A DNA stretch of 64,000 nucleotides from Anaerolineae bacterium (GCA_038198935.1 JBBPZQ010000103.1:25649-89648); one strand, 5' to 3'. Positions 16,902-58,150 are shown, numbered from the stretch's first letter. Notes: generated from the letters alone by a model not told the origin. Translations and numbers: made by a program.

Positions 16902-16930
16902 GTAGAGACGACCCGACGGGTCGTCTCTAC
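16902..16930 (-). terminator. lexA terminator hairpin (GTAGAGACGACCCG/CGGGTCGTCTCTAC)
   Basis: Perfect 14-bp inverted repeat 26 nt after the lexA stop, followed on the minus strand by CTTTTTCCC. Confidence 0.65.
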
Positions 16931-25737: not shown

Positions 25738-25856
25738 GTGTGACTCCTGAGATAGTTGATTAGTTTGTTAGTTGGCTGATGCTTGAGTTGGCTAACCAAC
25801 GAACAAACCATCCAACCAACCAACGATTCTCCACAGAAGTCAGGGACTGGAAACTG

Positions 25857-25908
25857 GATCCAACCTTTGCTCTCTCCCTTGTGAAACGGGGGAGGGTGGG
25901 GGTTGGAT
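25857..25908. repeat. GC-rich palindromic element / stem-loop in the pnp 5' leader
   Basis: GATCCAACC-TTTG-CTCTCTCCC-ttgtgaaac-GGGGGAGGG-TGGG-GGTTGGAT. Confidence 0.55.
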
Positions 25909-25969
25909 GCACTCTCCAATTCCTGCCCTTCTGAGGATCAATTCATTGTGGGGTGAGCGCGCCTCCTTT

Positions 25970-26054: not shown

Positions 26055-26324
26055 TTACTTGCGCAAACCGAGCTTGGCGATGATCTCTTTGTAGCGGTTG
26101 GCGTCTTTCTTGCTCAGATATGTCAGATGCCGTCTGCGCTGCCCGACCAGTTTCAACAAGCCATGCCGTGAGCCATGATCGTGCTTATGTGACTTCAGGT
26201 GCTCGATCAACTGATTGATACGAGTCGTGAGCAGCGCGATCTGCACCTCTGGCGAACCGGTATCACTGGTGTGAATGTGGTATTGCTTGATAATATTTTC
26301 CTTGGCTTGACCTTTCAGAGCCAC
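26055..26324 (-). CDS. rpsO: 30S ribosomal protein S15
   Basis: 89 aa, canonical S15 sequence ([48 protein letters not shown]). Confidence 0.95.
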
Positions 26325-34531: not shown

Positions 34532-34617
34532 TCAATCTATCTCAACCGCAGAGACGCAGAGAACGCAGAGAAAACAAGAATAACCTCTGCGCGCTCTGCG
34601 CCTTTGCGGTTATGTGT

Positions 34618-38010: not shown

Positions 38011-40273
38011 CGGCTACCTCCCGTCGAGATGCTTCATCCGCCGACGCAAAAACATAAAAGCCCAGCCCGCCCAACGCGCCGATGCTGAGACCGCAGATCA
38101 ATGCCAACGCGAAATTGTTCGACCAAAGATCGCTGAACAACGCCGACAAGATGGCTGCGAGCGCGGTACCCATTGGGATGAACAACAATCGCTGCGTTCG
38201 CGCGCGCGCCAACGCGGCGCTCACACCCAAGCCAGCACCAAGCAGCGCACCAACGATTAGGTGTCCCGCGTTCAGCGGGGGAGCAGCTACGGCAACATAG
38301 AGCGCAAAGGCGATAGCGCTCAGGGGCGCGCAGACGAGTAGCATAGCCAACCATTTGCGTTTGGGTTGTGCTTGCCAACGCCACAAACACAGCCCCATAC
38401 CGAAACCGATCGCCGCGCCGATTGGGAACATGGTGAGAAACGCCAGTGCCACAACGCCGATCAGCAAATTCGGTAAGAGCGCAGCCGACTTGAAGTATGT
38501 GAGCAATGCGAAGCCGAGCGCAAAACCTAAGCCAACGCCTAAAGCGCCGCCGCCGGCTTGCTTCAAGAAGCGAAACTGCCTGTCTCTCTCATCGGCTAGC
38601 GCGTCCGATACCGCGCGCCTCTTTTCGATTTCACTTTCGCGCGCTTGTCTCTCTTCGTTCTGTTGCTGCTCGCGCTCGTGTGCTGCCTTGCTTGCGTCCA
38701 AGAAGGCTCGCGCCGAATCGTCCAGCGTGTCCTCGTGCTGTGCGCGCCACTGCATCGCGCCATCTAACTGGTACCCGTGATACAAGAAACTTTCGTTTTG
38801 ATCTGACTGCTCCCATTCTTGCGCGCGCTCGTTGAGGCGGCGCTTCACCCGCTCATCAGCGCGGCGGTCGTCGAGCCACGTTCGCAGCAAGTCCCATTCG
38901 CGGATGAGCGCTTCGTGTGCCACCTCGACCGTATCGGACTCCGCGATGACTAATCTCGCCTCCACCAGCATCGTTAGCACCGCATCCACACTTGGTTGAT
39001 CCGCACGGTGTGGAGACAATGAGCGGCGGGCGACCCGTCTCCGTGTATCGGGCGCGTCATCTCGCATCTCCGTCAAACTCACGAAGATGCCGCGCGCGAT
39101 GCGCTGCTGCTCGTCGCGCAATTGCAAATAGACAGCCGTAGCACTTTGTGCAATCGCGCCCCGCACGCCGCCTGCCTCGTGATAGCCTTGCAGCGTCAGT
39201 TGTCGCCCCCGCCGACGCTTCCACGTTTCGAGCAGCGCGTGAGAGAGCAAGGGCAGAGCACCAGGCTCATGGCCCACATCGGTGAGCAGCAAGTCCACCA
39301 AGCCTGCCTCAAACTGCCAGTTGCCCTCTCGCGCAGGTTGCTCGATGGCGCGGCGCAGTTCGTCGGGCTGCATTGCGTTGAGGTTGTACTGGTGCTGCGG
39401 CAGCACGCGGAAGAAGTCGGGGAAGACCGCGCACTGCTCGTAGAAGTCGGCGCGAACGGTGAGCACGACGCGCACTGGCCCCGCCGTGTCGTCCGCGACG
39501 GCATGGAGCAAGTTGTCCACGAACGCCTTGCGCTCGATGGGCTCTTTGCACGCGGTGAACACTTCCTCGAACTGGTCCACGACGAGCAGCAGTCGCTCGC
39601 CGCCATCCTGCTTGAGCGCGCGCGACGCGGCTAGGTCGAGGCTGCGCGCGTCGTGCGCGAGGTCGTCTATCAGCGTCGCCTGCGCGGTGACGGATTCGGA
39701 CGCGCGCGTGAGTGATGCCGCGAGTTCTTTCAGTGGATGCTCGGTCGGTTTGATGAGGTGCAGTTGCCAGCGTGGGCTGCCGTCGGGCATGACGAAGTGC
39801 TGCGGCTTGTCGGGATGCATAGCGGCGACGAGACCTGCGCGCACTACCGACGATTTGCCGCTGCCCGACGCGCCGACGACGGCGAGCAAGCGCTGCTCGC
39901 GCACATGGGCGACCAATTTGGCGGTGACCGCTTCGCGGCCGAAGAACAGCGGCGCATCCGCCACGTCGAAGTAGAGTAAGCCTTTGAACGGCGGCTCGCC
40001 GGGCGCGGGTTCGTCGGATTCAGCAGCGGCTGGCGCAGCCCGCTCACCAAAAATGACAGTCGCGCCCTCTCCAACGTTATAGATGTCGCGGATCACCTTG
40101 TCACGCCCGACAACATCTCCGCCGGCACGAACATGGCCGCTGCTGACGTTCACACCACCCGATTGGCTGGTGGTGGACCCACCCGCGGCGGAATTCGTCG
40201 GGGTATCTGCGCTGGGTTCATCGTTTGCGTTCGCACTCACGAGCTTTCTCCTGTCGAGCATCGTATGCCTCAC
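37997..40273 (-). CDS. STAND-type P-loop NTPase with N-terminal Gly-rich motif, coiled-coil and C-terminal multi-pass transmembrane domain
   Basis: FFGREAV pre-Walker motif, Walker A GASGSGKSS, Walker B LLLVVDQFEE, Glu/Arg-rich coiled coil, about 6 hydrophobic helices at the C-terminus; overlaps the WD40 gene by 14 nt. Confidence 0.7.
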   Translation of the reverse strand: MRHTMLDRRKLVSANANDEPSADTPTNSAAGGSTTSQSGGVNVSSGHVRAGGDVVGRDKVIRDIYNVGEGATVIFGERAAPAAAESDEPAPGEPPFKGLLYFDVADAPLFFGREAVTAKLVAHVREQRLLAVVGASGSGKSSVVRAGLVAAMHPDKPQHFVMPDGSPRWQLHLIKPTEHPLKELAASLTRASESVTAQATLIDDLAHDARSLDLAASRALKQDGGERLLLVVDQFEEVFTACKEPIERKAFVDNLLHAVADDTAGPVRVVLTVRADFYEQCAVFPDFFRVLPQHQYNLNAMQPDELRRAIEQPAREGNWQFEAGLVDLLLTDVGHEPGALPLLSHALLETWKRRRGRQLTLQGYHEAGGVRGAIAQSATAVYLQLRDEQQRIARGIFVSLTEMRDDAPDTRRRVARRSLSPHRADQPSVDAVLTMLVEARLVIAESDTVEVAHEALIREWDLLRTWLDDRRADERVKRRLNERAQEWEQSDQNESFLYHGYQLDGAMQWRAQHEDTLDDSARAFLDASKAAHEREQQQNEERQARESEIEKRRAVSDALADERDRQFRFLKQAGGGALGVGLGFALGFALLTYFKSAALLPNLLIGVVALAFLTMFPIGAAIGFGMGLCLWRWQAQPKRKWLAMLLVCAPLSAIAFALYVAVAAPPLNAGHLIVGALLGAGLGVSAALARARTQRLLFIPMGTALAAILSALFSDLWSNNFALALICGLSIGALGGLGFYVFASADEASRREVADARA

Positions 40274-40886: not shown

Positions 40887-40962
40887 GAAATCACCAAGAT
40901 ACCAAGACACAAAGAAGTGTTCGGAATCTTTGTGTCTTGGTGTCTTGGTGTCTTGGTGATTT
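40887..40962. repeat. intergenic hairpin with tandem-repeated arms (ACCAAGA / TGTCTTGG x3)
   Basis: aaatcaccaagataccaagacacaaag...ctttgtgtcttggtgtcttggtgtcttggtgattt. Confidence 0.7.
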
Positions 40963-41767
40963 AATAGATTTGTTTCTGCTTCTTGCGCCGCTTCTCTTTT
41001 TTGCTGACGGGCTGCGATGGCGTCTCGTCGGCAGGCTCATCATCGCTCGATACAGCGTCGGCTTGCGGCGTGATCGCATCAGCCAGCGCGCGATACATCG
41101 CGCTCGACAGTGCGGGCGTCGTGTGTCGCTGCAAGTAGGACTTCAAACCATTGAGCGGCATGATGTGCTCTGCCTGCTCAGGCACTTGCAATTCGACCTC
41201 CGGTTTCGTGAACACGATCAAGGGCTTCACGGGCGCGTCCGCACCTTCGCCGTTCGGCTTCAACCATTTTTGCAACCGAGCGATTTGGGATTGCGCTTCG
41301 GCCGTCGGGTTGCCCAAGCCGCCGTGCCGCCAATCGTGCCACACGCGGCTGAGCGAGAACGGCTGTCGCCACTGCTTGCCGTCGAAACTGACAAGTCCCG
41401 TTTCGTCTTTTATCACGATCACGTGCAGACCCGTCGGTGTGAGCAAGACGTGTTCCGCAGGTGTGTAGTAGTTGATCAGACGATAGCGCTTGTCCAATCC
41501 CTTCAACACCTTCTCCAGTCGCTGATCGTCGCGCGGCTCGATCTGCCAACGCTCTGCCAGCCGTCCGCCGATGGTCGCCACAATCGTGCCGACGATCAGC
41601 GACACGTAGGAGAGCGCGATGTACTCTGGCGCCGTCAGCGTTGGATTGGCCAAGCCGCCGAGCGCGATGAACAAACCCGGCAGCATGATCGCCAGCCCGC
41701 CGAGGCTCGCGTACTTTGCGAACTTAGTTTTGCGATCAATTTGTGATTGGTTGGTGTAAGTGATCAT
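40961..41767 (-). CDS. NERD-domain protein with N-terminal TM helices
   Basis: 268 aa; NERD-like core (RYRLINYYTPAEHVLLTPTGLHVIVIKDETG) and KKEKRRKK tail. Confidence 0.6.
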   Translation of the reverse strand: MITYTNQSQIDRKTKFAKYASLGGLAIMLPGLFIALGGLANPTLTAPEYIALSYVSLIVGTIVATIGGRLAERWQIEPRDDQRLEKVLKGLDKRYRLINYYTPAEHVLLTPTGLHVIVIKDETGLVSFDGKQWRQPFSLSRVWHDWRHGGLGNPTAEAQSQIARLQKWLKPNGEGADAPVKPLIVFTKPEVELQVPEQAEHIMPLNGLKSYLQRHTTPALSSAMYRALADAITPQADAVSSDDEPADETPSQPVSKKEKRRKKQKQIY

Positions 41768-41771
41768 AATC

Positions 41772-41825
41772 TAATGCGTGATGCGTCATGCGTAACAAGG
41801 AATTACGCATCACGCATGACGCATT
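41772..41825. repeat. palindrome built from ATGCGT/ACGCAT hexamer repeats (3 per arm) overlapping the fabF stop
   Basis: taATGCGTgATGCGTcATGCGTaacaaggaattACGCATcACGCATgACGCATta. Confidence 0.7.
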
Positions 41826-43086
41826 ACTCCTTGTATCTCCCCATCACCAGACACGCATTCTGCCCGCCGAGTCCAAACGAATTTGAAAGCGTGTAATTGA
41901 CTTCCGCTTTGCGCGCAACGTTAGGCACGTAGTCGAGGTCACACTGCGGGTCGGGCGTCTCGTAGTTGATCGTCGGATGAATGACTTGCGTGTGCAGCGT
42001 CATCACGCACGAGAGCGCCTCAATCGCGCCCGTCGCGCCAAACGAGTGGCCGCACATGGATTTGGTCGAGCTGATCGGAATGGCGTATGCCTTCTCGCCG
42101 AACAGCGTCTTGATCGCGAGCGTTTCGATCGCATCGCCGAGCGGCGTGCTGCTGCCGTGCGCGTTGATGTAGCCGATCTGCTCCGGCGCGACGCCTGCAT
42201 CTTGAATCGCCCAACGCATCGCGCGGATCGCACCGTCGCCGACGGGATCGGGCGCGGCGACATCGTAGGCGTCGGTTGATGCGCCATAGCCGAGCACCTC
42301 GCAATAGATTTTCGCGCCGCGCTGCTGGGCATGCTCCAATTCTTCGAGCATCAGCACGCCGCAGCCCTCGCTGAACACAAAACCGTCGCGGTTCTTATCG
42401 AACGGACGGCTGGCACGTTCCGGTTCGTCGTTGCGCATAGACAGCCCGCGCATCGCGGTGAAGCCGACGACACATTCCGGAATAATCAAGGCTTCCGCAC
42501 CGCCCGCAAACATGATCTCGGCGCGGCCCAATTGGATCGCTTCCATCGCTTCGCCAATGGCTTGCGTGCCGGCCGCGCACGCCGTTACGACGGTGTTATT
42601 GAAACCCTTCGCGCCATAGTGCAGGCTCACGTGATGCGACGGCATGTTTGCGAGCGACTCCGGCAGTGAGAACGGGCTGACGCGCTTCCAGCCTTTCTCG
42701 CGCATCGTCTGCACGCCGAGCAGTGCCATGTCGAAGCCGCCAATCGCGCTGCCCATCAGCGCGCCGACGCGCTCGGCTTCGCTCGCGATGTCGTTCAGTC
42801 CCGCATCGTCCATCGCTTCTTTCGCGGCGGCGATGGCGAACTGCGAACAGCGCGCCATCCGACGCGCTTCCTTAAAGTTCATGTACTGGGCCGGATCAAA
42901 GCCTTTCACCTCGCCCGCGATCTGCGTCGGATACTCGGAGGCATCGAATGCGGTAATCTTCTTGATGCCCGACACGCCAGCGACTAGCTTATCCCAATGC
43001 TCTTTTGCTTTCAATGCCAGCGGCGTGATTGCACCCACACCCGTCACGACGACGCGCCGCAACTGCCGTGAACCATTGCTGCTCAT
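41824..43086 (-). CDS. fabF: beta-ketoacyl-ACP synthase II
   Basis: RRVVVTGVGAITPLA..., active-site Cys region TACAAG, His motifs; GGAGAC RBS. Confidence 0.9.
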   Translation of the reverse strand: MSSNGSRQLRRVVVTGVGAITPLALKAKEHWDKLVAGVSGIKKITAFDASEYPTQIAGEVKGFDPAQYMNFKEARRMARCSQFAIAAAKEAMDDAGLNDIASEAERVGALMGSAIGGFDMALLGVQTMREKGWKRVSPFSLPESLANMPSHHVSLHYGAKGFNNTVVTACAAGTQAIGEAMEAIQLGRAEIMFAGGAEALIIPECVVGFTAMRGLSMRNDEPERASRPFDKNRDGFVFSEGCGVLMLEELEHAQQRGAKIYCEVLGYGASTDAYDVAAPDPVGDGAIRAMRWAIQDAGVAPEQIGYINAHGSSTPLGDAIETLAIKTLFGEKAYAIPISSTKSMCGHSFGATGAIEALSCVMTLHTQVIHPTINYETPDPQCDLDYVPNVARKAEVNYTLSNSFGLGGQNACLVMGRYKE

Positions 43087-43107
43087 GAATACGTCTCCAG
43101 TGAACAA

Positions 43108-43162
43108 GTCCTGAGTGCTGAGTCCTGAGCAAACGTGACTTGGCACTCAGCACTCAGGACTG
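43108..43162. repeat. palindrome with AGTCCTGAG/GTGCTGAG repeat arms between plsX and fabF
   Basis: agtcctgagtgctgagtcctgagc...cactcagcactcaggact. Confidence 0.65.
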
Positions 43163-44149
43163 AATCGCTCTGATCGCGCCGACCACATCGCTCTCGACTG
43201 CGCGCATCGCCGTGCGAATCATGTTCTTGATCGCGCGCGCGTCGCTGCGACCATGACCGATAATCACAACACCGTCCACGCCCAAAAGTGGCGCACCGCC
43301 GACTTCCGACGGGTCGAGCCGCTGGCGAATGCGATCGAAGGCCGAGCGCGAGAGCAGCCCGCCAATTTTAGTCAGCGTACTCGCCATCAACTCTTGGCGG
43401 ATCGTGCTGCTCATCATGCTCGCCACACCTTCAGCCGTCTTGAGCATGATGTTGCCGACGAAGCCATCGCACACGACCACATCCGCGCCGTGCTTCAGCA
43501 CATCTTTCGGCTCGATGTTGCCGACGAAGTTGAGCGTGCTCAGCGTCTTGAGCAGTGCGTGTGCTTCCTGCACGAGTTGGTCGCCCTTCGTGTCCTCTTC
43601 GCCGTTCGCCAGCAGTGCAACGCGCGGCGACTTCACGCCAAGCACGCGCTCGGCATACAGGCTGCCCATTTGCGCGAATTGCACCAAGTATTCAGGCTTG
43701 CAATCCGTGTTCGCACCGACGTCGAGCACGATAACGGGCGTGTCATCTTGCGGCAGTGCTGCGACGAGACCCGGCCGCTCGATACCTTTGATGCGCCCGA
43801 CGCGTCCGCTGCCGATGAGCGCGCCCGCCATGACCGCGCCCGTGTTGCCTGCCGACGCAAAGCCGTCGGCTTGCTTATCGCGCAGCAATTTCAAACCGAC
43901 GTTGATCGTTGCGTCCTTCTTGTCGCGGATCGCATTCGCGGGGTGCTCCTGCATCTCGATCACTTGTGTCGCGTTCACAACGTCAATGGACAGACCGTCC
44001 GTCTTGTGCTTCGCCAATTCCGTTTTGAGCAGTTGTTCGGGCCCGGCGAGGACGATGTCGACGCCGAACTCGCGCGCCGCTTCCACCGCGCCCGCGACAT
44101 CGTTCACAGGTCGGCTGTCGCTGCCCATTGCGTCAAGGACGATTTTCAT
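43154..44149 (-). CDS. plsX: phosphate acyltransferase PlsX
   Basis: 331 aa; MKIVLDAMGSD..., canonical PlsX. Confidence 0.9.
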   Translation of the reverse strand: MKIVLDAMGSDSRPVNDVAGAVEAAREFGVDIVLAGPEQLLKTELAKHKTDGLSIDVVNATQVIEMQEHPANAIRDKKDATINVGLKLLRDKQADGFASAGNTGAVMAGALIGSGRVGRIKGIERPGLVAALPQDDTPVIVLDVGANTDCKPEYLVQFAQMGSLYAERVLGVKSPRVALLANGEEDTKGDQLVQEAHALLKTLSTLNFVGNIEPKDVLKHGADVVVCDGFVGNIMLKTAEGVASMMSSTIRQELMASTLTKIGGLLSRSAFDRIRQRLDPSEVGGAPLLGVDGVVIIGHGRSDARAIKNMIRTAMRAVESDVVGAIRAIQS

Positions 44150-44154
44150 GTGGA

Positions 44155-45222
44155 TTACAACACACCGACTTGGCTGTGATCGCCGAGCATCAGGCGCAAG
44201 ACCTTGGGCTGCGGCGGCGTCTGATAGATTTCGACGAAGCGGCCGATGAGCGAATCGGAGATGCGGTCGCGCACGTTCTGTATCTGGCTGCGCTCCATCA
44301 CGATGCTGTTCTCGATCTCGGCACAGTAGAGCAGGCAGTCGTGGTCAATGGCAGTGAACGGGCCCACGAACGAGTTTTCGATGCGTGTATTCGCGCCGAT
44401 GATGGCGGGACCGCGCACGAGGCTGTTCACAATCTGCACGCCCTTTTCGATGATCGCGCGCCCGATCACCTTCGATCTCGCATCCACGCAGCCATCAATC
44501 TTCGGCTCGATCGTTTCGAGAATCAAGCGATTGGCGTCGAGCATGTCGTCGCTCTTGCCCGTGTCAATCCAATGGCTCTTGAGCAAGTGCGCGCGCACGT
44601 TCAGTCCGCGATCCACCAGATACTGGATCGCGTCGGTGATCTCCAATTCGCCACGTGCCGACGGTCGGATGGAGTTCACTGCCTCGAACACGTTGTGATC
44701 GAACATGTAGATGCCGATCACGGCGAACGGCGAGATGAACTGTTTCGGCTTCTCGACCAACTTCACCACGCGGTCGCTGCCATTCAGCACCGCCACGCCG
44801 AGCGAACTGGGATCGCTCATCTCTTTCAAGATGATCTGCGCGTTCATCGCGCCGTCGTGGAACGCATTGACCTGCGGCACGATGCCGTCACGGATGAAGT
44901 TGTCGCCGAGGAACAGTACGAAGCGGTCGTCCTGCAAAAAATCGCGCGCGATCTTTATGCCGTGCGCGATACCGAGCGGCGCGTCCTGCGGGATGTATGT
45001 GACTTTCGCATTGAACTTCGCGCCATCGCCGACGGCAGCCTTGATCTGATTGGCGGTGTCGCCGACGACGATGCCAATCTCGTCAATGCCCGCCTCGACC
45101 AAGTCTTCAATTGCATAAAACAAGACGGGCTTATTCGCCACCGGCACCAATTGCTTCGCGCCGGTATAAGTGAACGGCCGCAAGCGCGTGCCCTTGCCGC
45201 CGGAGAGTATGAGTCCCTTCAT
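44155..45222 (-). CDS. glucose-1-phosphate thymidylyl/nucleotidyltransferase, long form with C-terminal left-handed beta-helix
   Basis: Start MKGLILSGGKGTRLRPFTYTGAKQL with GGGAG RBS; the larger ORF N-terminal extension is judged spurious. Confidence 0.8.
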   Translation of the reverse strand: MKGLILSGGKGTRLRPFTYTGAKQLVPVANKPVLFYAIEDLVEAGIDEIGIVVGDTANQIKAAVGDGAKFNAKVTYIPQDAPLGIAHGIKIARDFLQDDRFVLFLGDNFIRDGIVPQVNAFHDGAMNAQIILKEMSDPSSLGVAVLNGSDRVVKLVEKPKQFISPFAVIGIYMFDHNVFEAVNSIRPSARGELEITDAIQYLVDRGLNVRAHLLKSHWIDTGKSDDMLDANRLILETIEPKIDGCVDARSKVIGRAIIEKGVQIVNSLVRGPAIIGANTRIENSFVGPFTAIDHDCLLYCAEIENSIVMERSQIQNVRDRISDSLIGRFVEIYQTPPQPKVLRLMLGDHSQVGVL

Positions 45223-45241
45223 CCTGCGCTCCCTATCGCAT

Positions 45242-45270
45242 GTAGAGACGTTGCACTGCAACGTCTCTAC
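45242..45270. terminator. hairpin GTAGAGACGTTGCA/TGCAACGTCTCTAC overlapping the BY-kinase stop
   Basis: Perfect 14-bp inverted repeat. Shares its 9-nt ends GTAGAGACG...CGTCTCTAC with the lexA terminator at 16902..16930. Confidence 0.55.
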
Positions 45271-45947
45271 GATTCGTTCCCATAATATTTGTGCAAACTG
45301 TTGTCGAACTTCACGTTGTTGAGCACCGCGCCGATCAGCGGCGCGTTCACTTTTTTCAAGAGTGCGTGCGCCTTCTGCATGTGCTCGCGCTTCGTGCCAC
45401 CCGCGTTGACGACCAATAGCACGCCATCCACTTTGGAAGCCAGCACGGCTGCGTCGGTCACGGCGAGGATCGGCGGCGCGTCGAAGATCACCATGTCCGC
45501 GCGCGACTTCAGCATCGCGATCACATCCTCCATGCGCTTCGAGCCGATCATCTCCGACGGATTCGGCGGCAGCGGACCCGCCGTGAGCAATTGCAATCCG
45601 TCTTGCGGCGTCGCTTGCAAGGGCGGATTGTTCCAGTCCGCATCGGGAATCATCAGGCTGGTCAAGCCGCGCTCGTTGCGCAGACCGAACGCGAGATGCT
45701 GCGACGGTTTGCGCAGATCGCAATCCACCAGAATCACTTTTTTGCCCGCCTGCGCCATGGTGACGGCGAGGTTGGCGAGCGTGGTGGACTTGCCTTCTTC
45801 GGGACTGGCGGACGTGACGACGAGCGTTTGCAGTTTCTTGTCGAACGAGGAGAATTCGATGTTGGTGCGCAGCGTGCGATACGCTTCGCTAATCGGCGAG
45901 CGCGGATTGCTCAGTGTGATGAGTGCGCTCGGACGGTGGTTCAGCAT
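45267..45947 (-). CDS. CpsD/CapB-family tyrosine-protein kinase (BY-kinase) for polysaccharide export
   Basis: Walker A SASPEEGKSTT, Walker B VILVDCDLR, ILAVTDA motif. Confidence 0.8.
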   Translation of the reverse strand: MLNHRPSALITLSNPRSPISEAYRTLRTNIEFSSFDKKLQTLVVTSASPEEGKSTTLANLAVTMAQAGKKVILVDCDLRKPSQHLAFGLRNERGLTSLMIPDADWNNPPLQATPQDGLQLLTAGPLPPNPSEMIGSKRMEDVIAMLKSRADMVIFDAPPILAVTDAAVLASKVDGVLLVVNAGGTKREHMQKAHALLKKVNAPLIGAVLNNVKFDNSLHKYYGNES

Positions 45948-45965
45948 GAACTGACTCCAAACAAT

Positions 45966-46036
45966 AGTCCTGAGTGCTGAGTGCGGAGTCCTGAGTATAC
46001 AATTCACCCAGCACTCAGCACTCCGCACTCAGGACT
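45966..46036. repeat. palindrome with AGTCCTGAG/GTGCTGAG/GTGCGGAG repeat arms (paralog of 43108..43162)
   Basis: agtcctgagtgctgagtgcggagtcctgag...cagcactcagcactccgcactcaggact. Confidence 0.65.
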
Positions 46037-46039
46037 GAT

Positions 46040-46756
46040 TTACGCTCGTTTCCAAAACGCCAGCCGCGCGCGCGGCGCGTTGGCAGTCTGTGCTTCACGC
46101 GCCGTGATGGTGGGAATCGAGCCGATGACGGGCAAGCCTGTGTAGCGTTCCACGTCCTCGCTGGAACGCACGACATCCGACTCCAGCCATTCGAGCGCGA
46201 ACACGACGACGACGCCGAGCAGTGCGCCGAGCACGCCGCCCGCCAGCATATTGATGCTCGTCTTCGGCGAGAACACTTCGGGTGCGCTGGCGTTGTCAAT
46301 GATGGTCGTGAGGATGCGGTCGCGCTGATCAATTTCCAGATTCTCGAGCTGCCGCTGCTGCACGAATAATTCTGCAAACGTCTGCGCGACACGCTGCGCC
46401 GTTGCGCCGTCGCGATGTTTGGCGTCCACCTGAATCGTGAGGTCTGCTTCGTCCGACGTGAAATTCACCATGCCCAGCACGGCTTCGGATCGCATATCCA
46501 ATTGAAGTTTAGTGTTGACCTTCTGCGCCATCGTGAGCGAACTGAGTTTCTTCGTGTAACTGCGCAGGATGTTCTTGATGGTGAGCGTCTGACCGTAGTC
46601 GGGGCGTGCGGGCTCATTGTTCAGCGTGATGATGGAGCGGTAGATGGTCGGCTGCGTCTTGCTGAAGACGTAGGCACTGGCGACGGCGATCACGGCGACG
46701 AGCGCGATGATCCACCAGCGTTTGCGCAAAATTTTTAGATAGTCCCGCAAGTCCAT
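46040..46756 (-). CDS. Wzz/chain-length-determinant (polysaccharide copolymerase) domain protein
   Basis: MDLRDYLKILRKRWWIIALVAV N-terminal TM helix, C-terminal TM helix and GLP motif. Confidence 0.7.
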   Translation of the reverse strand: MDLRDYLKILRKRWWIIALVAVIAVASAYVFSKTQPTIYRSIITLNNEPARPDYGQTLTIKNILRSYTKKLSSLTMAQKVNTKLQLDMRSEAVLGMVNFTSDEADLTIQVDAKHRDGATAQRVAQTFAELFVQQRQLENLEIDQRDRILTTIIDNASAPEVFSPKTSINMLAGGVLGALLGVVVVFALEWLESDVVRSSEDVERYTGLPVIGSIPTITAREAQTANAPRARLAFWKRA

Positions 46757-46878
46757 GAGCGTACTCCTCGCAAAACTTCGCGGATTGTAACATGAGAGGA
46801 AGCAATCACGAAAAGCGAATCACAATGCGCGATACGTAATGCGTGATGCGCAATGGTTACGAATTACGAATTGACGGA

Positions 46879-47571
46879 TCACCGCCGCAGCCAACTCCGA
46901 CTCTGCCGAGGAATCTCGCCGAGTACGGGCATGCCGAGTTGCTCGACATCGCGGGTGCCGCGCACGGAATCGTCCAGGTAGTCAATCAGAAACGCGAGCG
47001 CGACACCCGCGATGGCTGCGAGCGCGATGCGAATCGGCAGGTCCAGCCGCCCACGCAGGTCGGTGGTGGATTCGCTGATGGTAGGCCCGTCAATGATTTG
47101 AATCGAAGCGCGATAGGTGTTCAGTTGCGCGAAGTATTTCGCGTTGTCTTCCCTCAGTGCCTTCGCCGCGCAGTTCGCAACCTTCGTCAGCTGCTCGCGG
47201 TCTTGGCTGCTGATGCTGAGCGTCAGGATGCGATGCTGCTTCTGCGTATTCGCCGCGCCTTGAATGCCGCCGACTGGCACGCCCGCGCACGTGCTGACGC
47301 CTTGCGCGAATAGACCCGACTTCACCACTTCGGAAAAATCGTCGGTGATGTATTCGGACACGAGCCAGTCGTAGTAGGCGGGATCATAATAGATCGTGTT
47401 GGTGACCGGCACGCTCTCGCGCGCCAGTCCAATGGTGAAGCGCATCGTCGCCGTGTACGTCGTCGTCGGCTTCGGCGTGAGCAAGTACGATGCAGCGAAC
47501 ACGACGGCGACCAGCACGGCGATAATCCACCAGCGGCGGCGCACGACGTTCCAGTAGGCTCGAAGTTCCAT
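46879..47571 (-). CDS. Wzz/chain-length-determinant domain protein (second copy)
   Basis: MELRAYWNVVRRRWWIIAVLVAV...; same layout as 46040..46756. Confidence 0.65.
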   Translation of the reverse strand: MELRAYWNVVRRRWWIIAVLVAVVFAASYLLTPKPTTTYTATMRFTIGLARESVPVTNTIYYDPAYYDWLVSEYITDDFSEVVKSGLFAQGVSTCAGVPVGGIQGAANTQKQHRILTLSISSQDREQLTKVANCAAKALREDNAKYFAQLNTYRASIQIIDGPTISESTTDLRGRLDLPIRIALAAIAGVALAFLIDYLDDSVRGTRDVEQLGMPVLGEIPRQSRSWLRR

Positions 47572-47584
47572 GCAGACTCCAGCA

Positions 47585-47654
47585 GTCAGTAGCCAGTAGT
47601 CGGTAGTCAGACGAATCCATCTGGCTACTGGCGACTGGCGACTGGCGACTCTAC
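47585..47654. repeat. palindrome with GTAGYC / CTGGCGA repeat arms
   Basis: agtcagtagccagtagtcggtagtcag...ctggctactggcgactggcgactggcgact. Confidence 0.6.
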
Positions 47655-48731
47655 AAAATTCGTGAACTGTTCGCGAAACCGCTCGCGGCTGAACTGCTGT
47701 GCGTGCGCTTGGATCGCGGTCGCGTCAAAATGCAATTTTTCAAAACGGCGCACTGCATCCACGAGCGACTTCGCGCTGGGTTCGTGGAAAAAAATGCCGG
47801 TCACCCCTTTTGCCACCGTGTCGAGCGCGCCACCCGTGCCGAACGCGATCACAGGCCGGCCCGCCGCCATCGCCTCGACGGGCGCGATGCCGAAGTCGTC
47901 TTCGCCCGGGAAGATGAACGCGCGGCAGCGGTAGCGATAGCGGTCGCACTGAGCGTCGTCGAGCCGTCCGAGAAATTTGATGTGGGGCTTCGCCAGCGCT
48001 TGCAGCCGCGCGCGATCACGCCCATCGCCGATGACGACGAGCGGCAGTCCAAGCATGTTGAACGCCTCGACGACGAGATCAATGCGCTTGTATGGCAGCA
48101 GCCGCGAGACAACCAGATAAAATTTTTCAGGCGGCGCGTCATTCGCGTGGAAGCGCTCGGTGTTCACCGGCGGATAGATGACCTGCGAGTCGCAGCGATA
48201 AAATCGTTGAATGCGCTGTTGGATCGCGTGCGAGATGGCGGCGAAGCGCGTCACGCGCTGTGCCGCCTTGTACTCGACGCGCTTCAGCAGCGGCAGCAGC
48301 GGCGGCACGGCAATGCGCGCGATCCCGCCCGCGCCTTCGCCTTGCACGTAGTTGGCGAAATTCCAGACGAAGCGCGTCGGCGTGAGGCAGTAGCACAGGT
48401 GGCGCGCGTCGTGCCGCACGCGCACGTTGAGGCAGAACGCGCTCTTGTTGCTGATGACCAGATCGTATTCAGAGAGGTCGAGCGAGCGGAACGCAAACGG
48501 ATAGGCGAGCAGAAACCATTGGTGGTGCGTCTTGCTGAGGCGAATGCGATCTAGCGGCGAAGTGCGGATGTCCCATTGCTGATACTGCGGCGGCATCCTT
48601 TCGCGCCAATAGATCGAAGTGTAGATCGGCGCGTGGGGAAACAGCGCGTGCAATTCCTCCAGCACATTTTCCGCGCCGCCAACTTGATTGAGCCAATCGT
48701 GCACGAGCGCCACGCGCGGTTTCGTGATCAT
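47625..48731 (-). CDS. glycosyltransferase family 4
   Basis: Start MITKPRVALVHDW; GT4 C-terminal E..E motif region. Confidence 0.8.
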   Translation of the reverse strand: MITKPRVALVHDWLNQVGGAENVLEELHALFPHAPIYTSIYWRERMPPQYQQWDIRTSPLDRIRLSKTHHQWFLLAYPFAFRSLDLSEYDLVISNKSAFCLNVRVRHDARHLCYCLTPTRFVWNFANYVQGEGAGGIARIAVPPLLPLLKRVEYKAAQRVTRFAAISHAIQQRIQRFYRCDSQVIYPPVNTERFHANDAPPEKFYLVVSRLLPYKRIDLVVEAFNMLGLPLVVIGDGRDRARLQALAKPHIKFLGRLDDAQCDRYRYRCRAFIFPGEDDFGIAPVEAMAAGRPVIAFGTGGALDTVAKGVTGIFFHEPSAKSLVDAVRRFEKLHFDATAIQAHAQQFSRERFREQFTNFVESPVASRQ

Positions 48732-48790
48732 GCACGGCGAGTATAACGCAGGTTCGAGAAAATAGGGAAACAGGAAAATGCGATGGCGGA

Positions 48791-48895
48791 CAGGTGTCAA
48801 GTGTCACATGTCACGTCTGTGATCATTCACACATGACACATGACACATGGCACGTGACACTTGGCGCTTCCCGCTCCACACCTGTCACTTGTCTC
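48791..48895. repeat. palindrome with GTGTCA/TGACAC repeat arms upstream of the glycosyltransferase / downstream of arcC
   Basis: caggtgtcaagtgtcacatgtcacgtctgtgat...acatgacacatgacacatggcacgtgacacttg...cacctgtcacttgtc. Confidence 0.6.
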
Positions 48896-49829: not shown

Positions 49830-49941
49830 TTGACATCTCCATCATCGGATGTTATATTGTGTTCGAGCGGTCTCGTAAGTCCTGGTGTCACTGGCTCCAC
49901 ATTTGGGAGTCCCACTCCGTCCAAACGGTCTTCAGTGATCG

Positions 49942-50581
49942 TCACTGGTCACGGTGGTCATCGGTGCCTAGGGTGAGCCGCTTTTTCTTTTTGGTGCTCA
50001 AATCGTCGAAGTGGATGATCTTCGAGCGGATGATGTTGTAGTACTCGCTGTGATGATGACGATAGTGCTGCATCACAGCCCAAGCCACGAAGTCGGGCGC
50101 GATCATCTCAGGCATTGTCTGTGAGTCGGTCTGATGCAGACGGACGATGTTGCCAGCAACGCCCGCAATCGCCTCGCGTAACCCCAGCCTCCAAGTCCGC
50201 TTGTTGTCTCTTGTTGGTGTGACGTTTGTCAATAAACAGGTCTATGCGAATGTGTCGCCTCACTGCTTGAAGCGCACAACCCTCAATCAATTCTTGGTAA
50301 AGTCTTTCGTAATCCTCAAGCGCATTTCCTCTATTACGCCAGATTGCAACATCAATCGAGATAACCGGATCGTCAGCAAGCGCATTCAGAACCTTTCGCA
50401 ATGTGCGCGGCGGTGAAACGGACGCTTTCAACTCGGAACGCGCTTTCAATTTCAGGACACGCCTCAAGCGTCGCATCGCCAATTCTAGATGGCGGCGATT
50501 CGTCGTGACGACCGAGACGACGGCGACGAAGTGGTCGTCGCTAGTTGCGTACAAGGACTCGTCAACGAAGGCTGCAATCAC
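49942..50581 (-). pseudogene. DUF3800-family gene disrupted by a frameshift
   Basis: The N-terminal part (MIAAFVDESLYAT..., GTG start at 50581) is in the 50108..50581 frame; a plausible C-terminal continuation is in the 49942..50232 frame. Confidence 0.45.
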
Positions 50582-50694: not shown

Positions 50695-53361
50695 TCAAAG
50701 CAATGCTGGTTGTGCAATCACCACCACATCGGCAAATTCGGTTGCTTGCAGTGCTTCGTATTCTGCTTGCTTGACCTTGATGTACTTCCATTCCGTGCCC
50801 GTCAGCCGCGTGGCGTTCTCCGCCCAGAGCGTGGCCGCGCGGTCTTTGTTTGCCACGTCCACATCCTCACGCCCTTTGGTCTCTATCAGGTAATTCGTAC
50901 CCTGTTCGGCCACAGCCACGAAGTCAGGCTCATAGTAGCGCAAGTTGTTGTTGGCGTCGGTGTATTCGATGGCGAAGCCAAATTGCTCAGGCAGCTTGGC
51001 GAAGGCCGCAACGTCGGGCGCGTTGTGCAGGAACTTGGCGAATGATTTTTCAAACTCGTTGCCACACGGCACGAGGTTGAACACGCACTTGCGCGAGTCG
51101 AACGTCGGGCGTGAATACGGAAACGGCGGCGTCACCGATAGTTTCCGACCCGCATCCAAGAGTTGCGGTTGCAGTTCTTGCACGACGAGCGGACGCAGCA
51201 CACGCACAAACTCTCGCACCGTGACGAACTGAACCACTTCGGAACTGATGGCTTTGATGAGCGCGGGGTCGTCCAAGTTGACGCGCTCACCAAAGGCGTA
51301 CACCTCCAAGAACTCGCGGACTTTCGGCACGAGCGCGGCGAACTGCGACGGCAGTTTTACATCTTGTGCGATGCGCTTGGCGTAGTAGGAGATGACCTCT
51401 TGCGAAGTTTGTACGTCGGGCAGTTTGTAGTCGCGCTCGACAATCTTTTGCAGCGTGATGAAGTCGTAGCCTTCATAGTGGAACTGCTGAATATCCGCCT
51501 GCTCGGACTTGCGCGGCAGCTTGGGTGCGCGTATCGCGGACACGTCTAGCGCGACAATCTCGTCGGCTAAGGTGCGCTTGCGCGTCAGTATCGGGCTGAG
51601 GACGGGCAGCGCGATGTCTTTGTCTAGCTTGTCTGGGTCGGGCGCGATGGTGACGATGGTGAGTTTGTCTTTGCCGACTTCAAATGTGTCTAATTTGATG
51701 TCCTCGTCTTTTTCGAGTTGCTCGACAAACTCGATGAATGCCTTATTGCCGATGACGTCCACGCGCTCGGTGTAGGCTGTAGCGAAGCCGCGAAACATGA
51801 GCCGCAAGCCGCGCCCGATGGTTTGTTCGGGCAAGATGTTGGCCTTCGATGAGTAAGGTCGCAAACCCACCACCACTGTTACGTTCTGCACGTCCCAGCC
51901 TTCGCGCAGCATCAACACGCTGACAATCGCATTGATGGGACTGTGCAGGTCGTCCACTTCGCGGGCGACGGTGCGCGCTTTGTCGAGGTCGCGCTTCGAC
52001 ACTTCGCCTTTGCGGTCGGTGTGGATGACGAGCAATTGGTCGCCGCCGAACTCGGATGGGTACTTGGTGCGCAGGTAGTCGCCCACGTCCTCGGCTTCGT
52101 CGGTGGTGTTCATCATCACGAACAACAGCGGCTTGCGCTTGAGTTGTGCGAGTTGTTCGCGGTATTCGCGCCAGCGTTCCACGCCTGCCGTGAGGTATGC
52201 CTTGTATTTGGTGCTCGTAACAGACGAAGGAGTTTCACGGATGCCCGTCGTGATGCCTTTCGTTGGACGCTTGACGATGCCATCAATAATGGCTTGCTTG
52301 AGCGGGTAATCGTAAATCGTCCAGGTGAACAGGCTGCCCATGCTGTAACGCGGCGTGGCGGAGAAGTCGAGTTGGGCAGCGACCCCCACCCCAACCCTCC
52401 CCCGTTCGCCAACTGCGCGAACAGGGGAGGGAGTTTGCTCCCCTTCCCCTGTCCGTGCTTTTTCGGACGGGGGAAGGGGTAGGGGGATGGGGGTCAGGCT
52501 CGCGTGCAACTGGCGGATACTCTTGTTCCATTCGCTTTCTTCGTCGTGGGTGTGGTGCGCCTCGTCGTTGACGACCAACAATCGCCCGCCGCGTTTGATG
52601 ATGCGCGTATCGAAGTCCGCAATCTCCATTGGTTGTGCGGGCGGCTTCGCGCCAAGCACCGCCGTCATGATGTCGGGTTCGTCGCCGTCGCCGTTGTCTC
52701 GTTCGTAAAATTGTTGGATGTTGGTCAGGTATAACGCGCCGAGCGAGTGTGCGCGTTCGCCATCGCCGCGCATGTAGCAATCGAAGTCCCAGTGGATTTT
52801 CAGTTCGGGCGGGATGAGCGGGTCAACCTTGAAGATTCTGCCGCTGGCAAAATCGGCCTTCAATCGCTCGAAGACAATCACGTTGGGAGCGATGACGAGA
52901 AACGTCGTGGCGTAATCGTCGGCATTTTCCAACACGGCATTGAAGTATTGCCACACGATCGCCAGCGACATGATTTTCGTTTTGCCGCTGCCCGTCGCCA
53001 TCTTGATGCAGTAGCGCGCGAACTCGTCGTATTGCAAGAGCCGCAAGTCTTTGTTCGAGCCTGCGTATTGCTCGACCAAATCCTTGTGACGGCGCACGCG
53101 CGCGACTTCGTACAGATAAATCAGCGTCTCGATGGCGAACTTCTGCGAGTCGTGATAGGTGAAGGCGCGGCCATTGGGCAGGCGATGGTCGGTCTTGAAC
53201 CAATGATTGAGCAGGGCGCGTGTCGTCGCGGTGACGCCTTTGTACTTGTCAGCGCGCCAGGCGTCAACGGCTTTGCGGATGGCGGGCACGCACGGCGCGG
53301 TCTTGAGGCGTGGCTCCAGTAGCGAGAGTTGGCTATCAGGTTTGCGAGCGCGGCGGGGCAT
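50695..53361 (-). CDS. res: Type III restriction enzyme Res subunit (helicase-like)
   Basis: 888 aa; helicase motif I TGSGKT, motif II VVNDEAHH, Type III Res C-terminal region. Contains an in-frame GC-rich palindromic insert. Confidence 0.85.
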   Translation of the reverse strand: MPRRARKPDSQLSLLEPRLKTAPCVPAIRKAVDAWRADKYKGVTATTRALLNHWFKTDHRLPNGRAFTYHDSQKFAIETLIYLYEVARVRRHKDLVEQYAGSNKDLRLLQYDEFARYCIKMATGSGKTKIMSLAIVWQYFNAVLENADDYATTFLVIAPNVIVFERLKADFASGRIFKVDPLIPPELKIHWDFDCYMRGDGERAHSLGALYLTNIQQFYERDNGDGDEPDIMTAVLGAKPPAQPMEIADFDTRIIKRGGRLLVVNDEAHHTHDEESEWNKSIRQLHASLTPIPLPLPPSEKARTGEGEQTPSPVRAVGERGRVGVGVAAQLDFSATPRYSMGSLFTWTIYDYPLKQAIIDGIVKRPTKGITTGIRETPSSVTSTKYKAYLTAGVERWREYREQLAQLKRKPLLFVMMNTTDEAEDVGDYLRTKYPSEFGGDQLLVIHTDRKGEVSKRDLDKARTVAREVDDLHSPINAIVSVLMLREGWDVQNVTVVVGLRPYSSKANILPEQTIGRGLRLMFRGFATAYTERVDVIGNKAFIEFVEQLEKDEDIKLDTFEVGKDKLTIVTIAPDPDKLDKDIALPVLSPILTRKRTLADEIVALDVSAIRAPKLPRKSEQADIQQFHYEGYDFITLQKIVERDYKLPDVQTSQEVISYYAKRIAQDVKLPSQFAALVPKVREFLEVYAFGERVNLDDPALIKAISSEVVQFVTVREFVRVLRPLVVQELQPQLLDAGRKLSVTPPFPYSRPTFDSRKCVFNLVPCGNEFEKSFAKFLHNAPDVAAFAKLPEQFGFAIEYTDANNNLRYYEPDFVAVAEQGTNYLIETKGREDVDVANKDRAATLWAENATRLTGTEWKYIKVKQAEYEALQATEFADVVVIAQPALL
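52381..52495. repeat. GC-rich nested palindromic element inserted in-frame in res
   Basis: gacccccaccccaaccctcccccg...ggggtagggggatgggggtc outer arms plus two inner hairpins; encodes ...PLPLPPSEKARTGEGEQTPSPVRAVGERGRVGVGV.... Confidence 0.7.
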
Positions 53362-53433
53362 AAAATTTTCTTACCTTGTTATTGACATACCCAAACGATG
53401 TGACTATACTGTGCCTGCAAACAAAAGTATTGC

Positions 53434-53715
53434 AGCCAGTCGCTTGTAGGTGAACGCCGGCTCCAAAGTCCCAGCACTGCTCAGTGCAGGGATGCCGTGC
53501 GCTGGGTAAACCAGCCTAGCCTACAGGGGGCTGGCGGCGATAGATGCGCCACCGACCACCGAAACCCGTACCGAGTGTATGGTGAACCTTCCGTCGGAAG
53601 GAGTTAGGGGGCAGGGCGTGTCCACTGTGTTGGAATAGCCAGTCGGCTGTAGGTGAAAGTCGGCTTCATGCCGTGCGCTCGACATCCGAGCCTAGCCTAC
53701 AGAGGGCTGGCTTTT
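53434..53715 (+). repeat. two tandem structured repeat units (GCCAGTCGSYTGTAGGTGAA...GCCTAGCCTACAGRGGGCTGG), the second ending in hairpin + TTTTTC
   Basis: Unit 1 about 53434..53545, unit 2 about 53640..53715; long-range CTGTAGG/CCTACAG and GCCAG/CTGGC pairing. Confidence 0.5.
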
Positions 53716-54479
53716 TCTATGTCAAACGGATTGTCGCGGCTATACCAGTTCTTCGGATACATGGCGCTGTCATAGCGGTCCACCAGTAAACTTACTTTGT
53801 CCTCGACGTAGCGATAGTAACGCATCTCCCTCCTCACAAAAGCGCGATAGACTGCCCAGTTCATGTAATCAATCACTTGCAGACACGGCTCGCCTACCGC
53901 ATTCTGAGGTAAGACGACAATCTCTGTTTCCACCTTGGTCTCCCAACGGGTTTCAAAATTGGCGACGCCGCGTTGAATCGCTTGCTCCAATTGGGCTTGA
54001 CGCTTGCGCGAGCCACGTTGGGCAAAGTAGATCAGATTGCGCGCATAGCGATGCAAGACATTCTCGAAAAGCAAACTGATCAAGTAATCATAGAACGTGC
54101 TTTCATTAGCATGAAACGAATTGCGAAAAACGCGCTCAACTTTGCGCGCAACGACGAACTGGGCTTTGAAATCCTGCGCGCGCAACATTTTGAACACGGC
54201 CTGGCGAACTTCGGGCGTATCATCCTTCGCATGAAACGCTGCGTATGTTTTGCCGATGGAAGGAATATCTCGCAAATACTCGTCGGCGGCAAGCTCGGCG
54301 TGCAATTCCGCCAGCGCGCGGCGAATCGGGCTCGCGTCGCTCGTCTCGATGAATCCCAAAATCAATATAGGCGAGCAGCCCTCCTGCCCGACAATCAGGT
54401 TGCCGTGGCGGTCGTAGAACGTCGGGTCGCCTGACTCGTCCACAAAATACCAACACGACCCCTCTGCCGCTTCCTTCAT
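53697..54479 (-). CDS. DUF3800-family protein
   Basis: 260 aa; N-terminal [12 protein letters not shown] motif typical of DUF3800; start overlaps the mod stop by 4 nt. Confidence 0.6.
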
Positions 54480-58071: not shown

Positions 58072-58150
58072 AGGACTCCTTCGGAGAGACGGCGGACGAC
58101 GGACGGCAGACGGCTGATGTCTTGCCTCCATCGTCCGCCGTCTGCCGTCG

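Follow-up and report, generated by a model that had tools for sequence, protein, structure and literature searches.

Tandem arrays of heptanucleotides, such as the STRR-type unit sequences of cyanobacteria, are among the closest described counterparts of the elements considered here, a set of intergenic hairpins with arms made of short tandem repeats in a 64,000-nt stretch of DNA from an Anaerolineae bacterium (GCA_038198935.1 JBBPZQ010000103.1:25649-89648; this whole stretch is referred to below as the window). An excess of heptanucleotide repeats has been reported time and again, in cyanobacteria, in a survey from 2007 on simple sequence repeats (SSRs; cited in PMC4679880 and PMC4692102), in Geobacter (2009), and in Xanthomonas and the Beggiatoaceae (both 2015). 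The heptanucleotide is the most over-represented long SSR in many bacteria, and polymerase slippage over a 7-nt contact is cited in PMC4679880 and PMC4692102 as a proposed cause of the excess. Units reported from particular groups include GGGGAYT and TTTTGAA in cyanobacteria (Nostoc) and TAACTGA in the Beggiatoaceae (PMC4679880, PMC4692102, bioRxiv 10.1101/2022.06.06.494920).

Paired forms have been catalogued as well. In Xanthomonas, the unit GGGAATC forms 70-75 convergent pairs, with one array on each strand and most of them transcribed, as described in a study of G-quadruplexes (Rehm et al. 2015, PMC4692102). For Geobacter metallireducens, Aklujkar et al. 2009 (PMC2700814) give classes 1 (GTTGCTYN x4), 2 (TCTCCGTS[Y] x3) and 3 (MTYCTGA x5), with 16-48 copies per class; the repeats are described in supplementary figures only, and their designation as sites for IHF/HU is by interpretation. 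Other intergenic stem-loops are of a different make. REP, BIME and REPIN elements are copies of one conserved sequence, 20-40 nt long and tagged with GTAG or CGTC, and often go with a RAYT (IS200/IS605-like) transposase (PMC3733652, PMC3116915), and GTAG-tagged REPs occur in Chloroflexi (PMC3733652). The cip-cel stem-loops of Clostridium cellulolyticum were shown by experiment to direct selective RNA processing and stabilisation and to set transcript ratios (PMC4423207).

Tandem-armed hairpins at the ends of genes

The original prediction described at least six large hairpins of common architecture at gene boundaries in a cluster of fatty-acid and exopolysaccharide (EPS) genes, and all six that it listed were found. 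Arm units, periods and copy numbers were taken from Tandem Repeats Finder (TRF), which put right the unit length: the arms, at first read as 6- or 9-mers, are arrays of 7-nt units, or of 8-nt units in the first hairpin (40887), with 2.7-4.6 copies per arm and arm-to-arm spacers of 7-25 nt. In the tabulation by arm unit, the starts of the first, second and fifth hairpins are 40892, 41774 and 47580. In the list below, as throughout, coordinates are those of the whole window, arm units are written on the plus strand, the genes lie on the minus strand, and energies (dG) are for the folding of sense-strand RNA:

40887..40962, minus strand: hairpin, 5' arm CACCAAGA x3, 3' arm TCTTGGTG x4, complementarity 93-96%, dG -37.2 kcal/mol, z -8.1; in the gap from the NERD-domain gene (its stop TAA at 40961-40963) to that for the 4HBT thioesterase (start 40867)
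41772..41826, minus strand: hairpin, 5' arm ATGCGTS x2.9, 3' arm SACGCAT x2.9, complementarity 92%, dG -33.7 kcal/mol, z -7.5; occupies the entire gap from fabF to the NERD gene, its first 3 nt being the fabF stop TAA and the NERD start codon lying 4 nt past the last paired base
43107..43161, minus strand: hairpin, AGTSCTG x3.3 against its complement x2.7, 17/17 of the core paired, dG -35.9 kcal/mol, z -6.4; gap from plsX to fabF, the plsX stop TGA (43154-43156) lying within the first sense unit, with GGAG as ribosome-binding site and then the fabF start (43086) next
45966..46036, minus strand: hairpin, AGTSCTG x4.4 against its complement x4.6, complementarity 87%, dG -50.8 kcal/mol, z -8.7; gap from Wzz to the CpsD-like kinase gene, the Wzz stop TAA (46040-46042) lying 3 nt ahead, followed by GGAG and the kinase start (45947)
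47574..47650, minus strand: the weakest hairpin, CAGTAGT x4.4 against CTGGCGA x4.3, complementarity 77-79%, dG -34.0 kcal/mol, z -3.0; gap from the glycosyltransferase gene to Wzz2, the 3' arm directly adjoining the GGAG site of Wzz2
48791..48895, minus strand: compound hairpin, GTGTCAY (compound) against ACACATG x4.6, with arms of GTGTCAY and RTGACAC heptamers, dG -49.8 kcal/mol, z -4.6; 3' of the carbamate kinase gene, the stop (48885-48887) lying in the outer stem and a T-rich stretch next

The hairpins are real, and chance comes nowhere near accounting for them. Chance was modelled by 200 dinucleotide-preserving shuffles of the window, with inverted pairs counted by a strict TRF criterion: the window holds five inverted tandem-array pairs and the 200 shuffles none, and it has 17 period-7 arrays against 0.67 per shuffle and seven period-8 arrays against 0.93. 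Folding energies of the six as sense-strand RNA lie between -34 and -51 kcal/mol, with z-scores between -3.0 and -8.7, and none of 200 shuffles folds as stably as the actual hairpins. Since an independent Logan assembly is 100% identical across 10 kb, the hairpins are not an artefact of assembly. The suspected kinship of the hairpins at 43107 and 45966 was borne out, both being built of AGTSCTG units, and ATGCGTGATGCG is common to 41772 and to a direct array at 46839, the AGTSCTG and ATGCGTG units each occurring at two sites within the window, i.e., in 64 kb of this genome; high copy of a unit is seen in other replicons, such as the phage described below. In the arms of the 41772-41826 hairpin, two variant units stand in swapped, non-mirror order, which gives G.G and C.C mismatches.

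As transcribed, the minus-strand genes run from carbamate kinase through GT4 glycosyltransferase, a Wzz-like protein (Wzz2), Wzz, CpsD-like P-loop kinase, sugar-nucleotidyltransferase, PlsX, FabF and NERD-domain protein to the 4HBT thioesterase, and each of the six hairpins takes up the room that separates a stop codon from the following ribosome-binding site or start codon. The expectation of overlap with stop codons, or of a position shortly upstream of starts, was upheld: every one of the six has a stop codon inside it or within 7 nt, those not containing the stop begin 0-7 nt past it, and all nine members in the window, i.e., the six together with those at 25757, 34544 and 58087 described in the last section, contain a stop codon or lie within a few nt of one. 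At 47574-47650, the sense 5' arm, (AGTCGCC)x3 followed by AGTAGCC, codes for the end of the GT4 glycosyltransferase, namely its last 9 codons (ESPVASRQ) and its stop TAG (47625-47627), and the C-terminus of this protein (47625-47654) is repeat-derived and unlike that of its orthologues.

Only the hairpins at 40887 and 48791 carry T-rich tails, the former being followed by TTTCTTTTTCGTTTC on the sense strand and the latter by a promoter-like TGCGTTATACTCGCC, kept in relatives, immediately ahead of the glycosyltransferase start (48731). Promoter-like boxes kept in relatives follow the gaps from carbamate kinase to glycosyltransferase and from Wzz2 to Wzz, and therefore the cluster comprises several transcription units, with some hairpins at their ends and others within them. 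The TGCGTTATACTCGCC box lies 5-8 nt ahead of the glycosyltransferase start (window 48732-48790, and the orthologous gaps of L083, L084 and L087, three of the syntenic loci listed below), and the glycosyltransferase mRNA is possibly leaderless; a CATGYTACAAT box lies upstream of Wzz (window 46757-46822, and the orthologous gaps of the same three loci).

Set beside the array pairs of Geobacter and Xanthomonas, the window hairpins show three features of that class: tandem arms of 7-9-nt units, same-unit arrays on opposite strands, and a convergent orientation with the G-rich arm first. Their identity as convergent (inverted) pairs of hepta- or octanucleotide arrays is well supported, and they are a Chloroflexota, many-unit instance of a known but poorly characterised kind of repeat, and not the undescribed family that they had been taken for. 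The G. metallireducens repeats, as presented in PMC2700814, likewise fall into several unit classes per genome with 3-5 tandem units per site, are mostly intergenic, and form opposite-strand pairs at variable distance that are drawn as fold-backs; MTYCTGA, of class 3, differs by one base from GTCCTGA, which is the window unit AGTCCTG rotated. Unlike the present case, the host is of a different phylum, and stop adjacency and arm polarity are not reported in that account. In Xanthomonas, too, heptamer SSRs are over-represented intergenically, the G-rich arm comes first, and repeat length varies between related species with the single or paired type usually kept (PMC4692102), but there one G-rich unit, a G-quadruplex (G4) former, dominates, whereas here there are many units, most of them not G4-capable. 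The Nostoc and Beggiatoaceae heptamers share the 7-nt period, the intergenic position near start and stop codons, and recurrence across phyla, and their units have counterparts here, a GGGATTT/GGGGATT array at 35703-35746 of the window and, in the deltaproteobacterial locus L025, a hairpin arm of AACTGAT, i.e., the Beggiatoaceae unit TAACTGA. They are, however, mostly direct arrays, with only one inverted TAACTGA set reported, in the Beggiatoaceae genome, and "only a few paired repeats" for Nostoc GGGGAYT. What is added here is that the paired hairpin form reaches the Chloroflexota and phages, that units are shared by very different genomes, and that polarity is strict and stop codons adjacent.

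The proposed likeness to REP/BIME elements did not survive comparison. REP and REPIN elements have also been hypothesised to act as mRNA stabilisers or terminators, and REPINs are inverted pairs, but the arms here are internally periodic, unit types differ by site, and there is no conserved element sequence or tag: the nine hairpins have no common 20-40-nt palindrome and at least seven unrelated unit types, their loops are unrelated even between both AGTSCTG copies, and an unpaired GTAG or CGTC stands at neither end of any of the six. Integron attC sites were also rejected, there being no R'' (RYYYAAC) or R' (GTTRRRY) cores at the nine hairpins on either strand, and the genes being syntenic housekeeping and EPS genes, not cassettes. 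Rfam 15 at the gathering score gave nothing at the hairpins, its sole match in the window being DUF3800-III at 49864-49984. A separate GTAG-type REP-like family, GTAGAGACG-N11-CGTCTCTAC, is present at 16902-16930, 45242-45270 and 54777-54805, with its outer stem conserved and its inner stem variable; in the 45242 copy the TAG stop of the kinase gene falls within the GTAG, and the orthologous gap of L083 has GTAGACGCCCCaccGGGGCGTCTCTAC.

Turnover among relatives and recurrence in distant genomes

The source genome is that of a member of the Chloroflexota, its FabF being 80% identical to that of a groundwater Chloroflexi metagenome-assembled genome (MAG) and 59% identical to those of Thermoflexales and Anaerolineales. 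Syntenic loci, reached through homologues of the NERD protein, differ widely in what they carry at the gene boundaries:

L083 (~80% nt identity): ten genes in the same order, with gaps of 5-7 nt or genes overlapping, and no tandem-armed hairpin
L084 (NERD 67% identical): a 171-nt CAGTGAA/TTCACTG hairpin from plsX to fabF, a TTATCTCCC hairpin from fabF to the NERD gene, a GATGAGT array from Wzz to the kinase gene, and a perfect hairpin with CACGCATTACGT from Wzz2 to Wzz
L087 (NERD 57% identical): a 466-nt structure with CGCAGAG and CGCGAAT arrays
L002 (FabF 80% identical): simple hairpins of a different kind

The 40887 boundary has canonical terminator-like hairpins in L084 and L002, and for both T-tailed hairpins (40887 and 48791) there are terminator-like hairpins at that place in relatives, or conserved promoter-like boxes next. 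Conservation of position, which a coincidental assemblage would lack, was partial, L083 being without any such hairpin and L084 having hairpins of other units at the same boundaries. Comparison of orthologous regions for variation in unit number, as had been suggested, was likewise partly rewarded: at the window sites, relatives have different units or none, and changes in unit number came from two other pairs of orthologous loci, L108/L200 (82% identity) and L133/L145 (78%), in which a hairpin of the same type at the same gene boundary differs in unit number, unit variants and loop. From the syntenic comparisons, single elements are dispensable and turn over within ~20% nucleotide divergence, with the cluster boundaries gaining them repeatedly. 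The class is one of unnamed, fast-turning-over intergenic palindromes, and not of copies of one sequence family. No flanking target-site duplication was found between the filled gaps of the window and the empty gaps of L083, and MITEs were rejected on this ground.

The hairpins had also been thought genus-specific, which they are not. A TRF-pair detector applied to 80 named genome loci found the paired-array architecture in other Chloroflexota (L004; L006, with five in 12 kb, some of them followed by T runs; and L012) and in Deltaproteobacteria MAGs, including L025 (five in 21 kb), as well as in Syntrophaceae and Nitrospirae MAGs; the approximately 40 Firmicutes loci among the 80, tallied by hand from their titles, had none. 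An exact search with AGTSCTGAGTSCTGAGT matched at least 120 metagenome contigs with GC contents of 32-72% (median 61%). At 126 AGTSCTG sites there were 51 hairpins with the AGT array first, one in reverse, one of mixed order, and for the remainder single arrays; inverted pairs take in ~40% of AGTSCTG arrays, with a polarity of 51:1. In 31 of the 36 cases where a gene runs into such a metagenome hairpin, the distance of its stop codon from the first unit is -7 to +9 nt. The search also matched 81 viral stretches. On one 41-kb phage contig, which has capsid protein E and tail genes, there are at least 25 AGTSCTG arrays and ~15 hairpins, directly past the stops of most of the genes in the structural module. 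This contig, IMGVR_UViG_3300005578_000008 (L238, L247, L257, L266, L287), is siphovirus-like with a GC content of 0.58, and several of its loops are just 0-10 nt. A BLAST search of plasmids with the 45966 hairpin gave no match, possibly due to low-complexity masking, and AGTGCTG and AGTCCTG were not found in a literature search for those literal repeat strings.

The high copy of one unit type per replicon, as in the phage with its 25 or more arrays, is what would be expected of miniature mobile elements of a REP/REPIN- or MITE-like kind, copied by a dedicated enzyme that recognises them. Neighbouring sites in the window share unit types, the polarity is fixed, and true GTAG-type REP hairpins coexist in the window, all of which would fit. 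Such an origin is nonetheless improbable in view of the missing conserved termini, GTAG/CGTC tag and target-site duplication (against the empty L083 sites), of loops and unit numbers that differ in every copy, and of the absence of a transposase among 20 window proteins scanned against Pfam. Recurrence in distant genomes extends to CGCAGAGA and CAGTGAA as well as AGTSCTG, and together with the regular 7-nt periodicity, which suits cooperative binding, it might point to DNA-level protein-binding sites, for IHF/HU or some other heptamer-reading factor. The same architecture was annotated in this manner, as "global regulator binding sites", in the account of G. metallireducens (PMC2700814). We consider binding sites an equally slim prospect: no single sequence-specific reader fits the seven or more unrelated unit types in the window, the elements are at gene 3' ends and not at promoters, and the Geobacter proposal, going by that account, was itself never put to the test.

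Arm polarity, slippage and a possible role in RNA

A strict polarity runs through the pairs. In the genome and metagenome loci, the 5' arm has more G than C in AGTSCTG-type pairs by 39:2 and in pairs of other units by 29:6, and the viral loci replicated this (33:3 and 15:2, respectively). The polarity holds on either strand. Four of the five strict pairs in the window have the G-rich arm first (the exception is at 40892), and the units at 34544 (CGCAGAGA) and 58087 (AGACGGC) have more G than C by hand count. The idea that canonical terminators have the opposite polarity was not supported, as generic terminator-like hairpins in the same DNA showed no bias (31 vs 30). Stop codons supplied by the 5' arm would fit as the cause for AGTSCTG (38:2) but fail for other units (15:13). 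Avoidance of Rho, as a simple cause, was also unsupported, the orientation of single arrays relative to genes being unbiased (C-rich vs G-rich sense arrays, ~15 vs 13 by hand tally). As a conjecture, wobble pairs might let G/T-rich arrays pair with themselves and thereby prime fold-back synthesis, from which the polarity would follow.

Other properties of the pairs bear on how the arms come to match. The period is 7 nt in 65 of 76 pairs, and the arms are unequal in unit number in 52 of 84 indel-free pairs. Mismatches per unit numbered 1.30 in the actual order of units and 1.27 in permuted orders, and of the 78 informative pairs not one did better than 95% of its permutations. A mirrored order of the variant units, sought as a sign of selection on pairing, was not found. 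Since the actual unit order pairs no better than permuted ones, complementarity is at the level of the unit type and not of mirrored sequence, which is what slippage of whole units in each arm would yield, and which explains the tolerance of the stems to indels.

Our preferred explanation, to which we give about even chances, is that the hairpins are convergent microsatellite pairs driven by slippage and transcribed as generic stem-loops. At the DNA level, whole units would be gained and lost in each arm through replication slippage; the arms would remain complementary, as both would consist of one unit type and any register could pair, and occasional copying between arms may add to the match. 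New sites would emerge and old ones decay within ~20% nucleotide divergence, and persistence would be limited to the space from a stop codon to the next ribosome-binding site, or to the 3' ends of transcription units, with the first unit often supplying the upstream stop. At the RNA level, the operon transcript would fold into stems of ~20-30 bp with regularly spaced mismatches, and these may serve as generic stable stem-loops, i.e., as barriers to 3' exonucleases and possibly as processing sites of the RNase III type, or as terminators where a U-rich tail is present (40887 and 48791). The stems would also uncouple adjacent cistrons that are translationally coupled in hairpin-free relatives. 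Origin and maintenance by slippage are supported by the unit-number and register data, with shared units and polarity left unexplained by it. The RNA role is plausible by position, by stability and by analogy with the cip-cel stem-loops (PMC4423207), which also are stable, stand at the 3' ends of cistrons in operons, and have been gained and lost in evolution, but which have stems without tandem units and a function known by experiment, where here it is deduced.

A number of observations weigh against this explanation. L083, the closest syntenic relative, does without the hairpins, and stem pairing is not optimised, both of which fit neutrality equally well; and the minimum free energies (MFEs) of sense and antisense folds show no consistent difference between strands, with no sign in that comparison of strand selection at the RNA level via G.U pairs. 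Because the elements are dispensable, their stems not optimised and the strands without asymmetry, the case for an RNA role is weakened. Hairpins at 0-7 nt past a stop would be partly melted by terminating ribosomes, U-rich tails are present in only two of the six, and a terminator scan found 24 sites where 17.8 +/- 5 were expected, i.e., no enrichment, and left the long tandem-armed stems uncalled, its sole match at the hairpins being a short sub-stem within 41772-41826. Finally, pure slippage in situ does not explain the 5'-G-rich polarity, the same unit at 25 or more sites of one phage, or one unit across genomes with GC contents of 32-72%, and so fixed polarity and the recurrence of units across phyla and phages are not accounted for.

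The scan bears in addition on whether the hairpins are simply ordinary intrinsic (Rho-independent) terminators. Strong stems directly past stop codons, the T-rich tails at 40887 and 48791 and the T runs after some L006 examples would all be in keeping with termination. We regard it as highly unlikely for the set, however, and rejected the canonical terminator: in four of the six no U tract follows the stem, and these four stand within operon-like gene arrays with the next start codon a few nt away, the long stems went uncalled in a scan without enrichment, and generic terminator-like hairpins do not share the G-first polarity.

The main rival to slippage-driven, transcribed pairs is a neutral or selfish origin, possible in our estimation although doubtful, in which hypermutable heptamer arrays and their inverted copies, a by-product of some quirk of replication or repair, would accumulate where harmless, with any effects on expression incidental. 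Much of what has been described would suit it: the closest syntenic relative has genes abutting or overlapping in place of hairpins, relatives have different unit types at the same boundary, stems are not optimised and arm lengths unequal, the sense strand has no folding advantage, single arrays are unbiased in orientation relative to genes, and a decayed remnant exists at 46823-46872. It is harder to reconcile with the ~40% of AGTSCTG arrays that are in inverted pairs, nearly all of one polarity (51:1), with a tightly packed phage genome that has ~15 hairpins at gene ends, costly if useless, or with the position of both T-tailed hairpins where relatives carry terminator-like hairpins.

A further, rather unlikely idea would address the polarity and the shared units directly, namely that one conserved process writes or renews a few heptamer palindromes (AGTSCTG, CGCAGAGA, CAGTGAA), G-first and beside stops, in several phyla and their phages. 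Candidates would be an enzyme specific for hairpins or heptamers, or a 7-nt step of a polymerase or primase, acting together with priming by fold-back on the G/T-rich strand. If true, this would constitute a new self-propagating gene-boundary element and provide a handle on the heptanucleotide excess of bacteria. In practical terms, the elements swell intergenic regions and lengthen or shorten C-termini, and they can mislead gene callers and terminator predictors.

Further arrays and structures in the window

Three additional members of the class and one direct-repeat remnant were found in the window:

34544..34611, minus strand: CGCAGAGA x3 and its complement, dG -46.3 kcal/mol, z -8.1; starts 6 nt past the YjeF_N/Carb_kinase stop; the gap is convergent, with a canonical terminator adjoining
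58087..58143, minus strand: AGACGGC x4 and its complement, dG -48.7 kcal/mol, z -7.1; in the gap from the sugar transferase gene (its stop at 58151-58153) to that for ornithine carbamoyltransferase
25757..25825, minus strand: GTTG/GTTA-type arms (4- or 8-nt units), dG -27.7 kcal/mol, z -5.8; immediately 5' of the pnp start, in the leader between rpsO and pnp, and partly in common with L086
46823..46872, minus strand: direct-repeat remnant of ATGCGYG units and TTACGAA x2 in the gap from Wzz2 to Wzz, without an inverted partner

The CGCAGAGA unit of 34544 also occurs in L087, L137 and the viral L237. As regards the remnant, the ATGCGY repeats that had been described at 46825..46860 as related to the hairpins are present and do share ATGCGTGATGCG with 41772, but all of them are direct repeats, and the stretch does not fold (z -0.5). 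The remnant and the perfect 22-bp hairpin in the orthologous gap of L084 both carry CACGCATTACGT.

The heptamer array at 35703-35746, in which TGGAGGG is followed by GGGATTT/GGGGATT, lies inside the YjeF_N/Carb_kinase open reading frame (ORF), apparently in an inter-domain linker; GGGGAYT is the unit reported in Nostoc (PMC4692102). The L084 orthologue of this gene has GGTTGGA x8 at its start. Long hairpins of a different type, rich in CCCTC/GGGAG, are present at 55200-55294 and 61435-61521, and similar CTCC..GGAG hairpins were seen in L002 and L086. The first of these falls towards the C-terminus of a 702-aa ORF, in a part free of domains, the DNA methylase domain taking up residues 77-396 only; the ORF is probably over-called, and the hairpin intergenic.

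The leader between rpsO (26055-26324) and pnp (23500-25737) also contains a long hairpin, GCAGGAATTGGAGAGTGCATCCAACC..GGTTGGATCCAGTTTCCAGTCCCTG, at 25841-25925, the sequence of which is kept in L086 and L087, with an extra CCCTC/GGGAG-rich apical insertion in the window copy. Its position recalls that of the RNase III-processed autoregulatory pnp leader of Escherichia coli. Adjoining the cluster is an nSTAND1/AAA_16 NTPase with a WD40-repeat protein, and downstream are a ResIII helicase/endonuclease and an N6_N4 DNA methylase, a pair resembling a type III restriction-modification system; the regions concerned are 36223-40273 and 50695-56584. The match to DUF3800-III RNA is on the plus strand, with 55.8 bits against a gathering score of 43.8, and ahead of it, at 49830-49858, is a near-consensus promoter-like TTGACA-17-TATATT.

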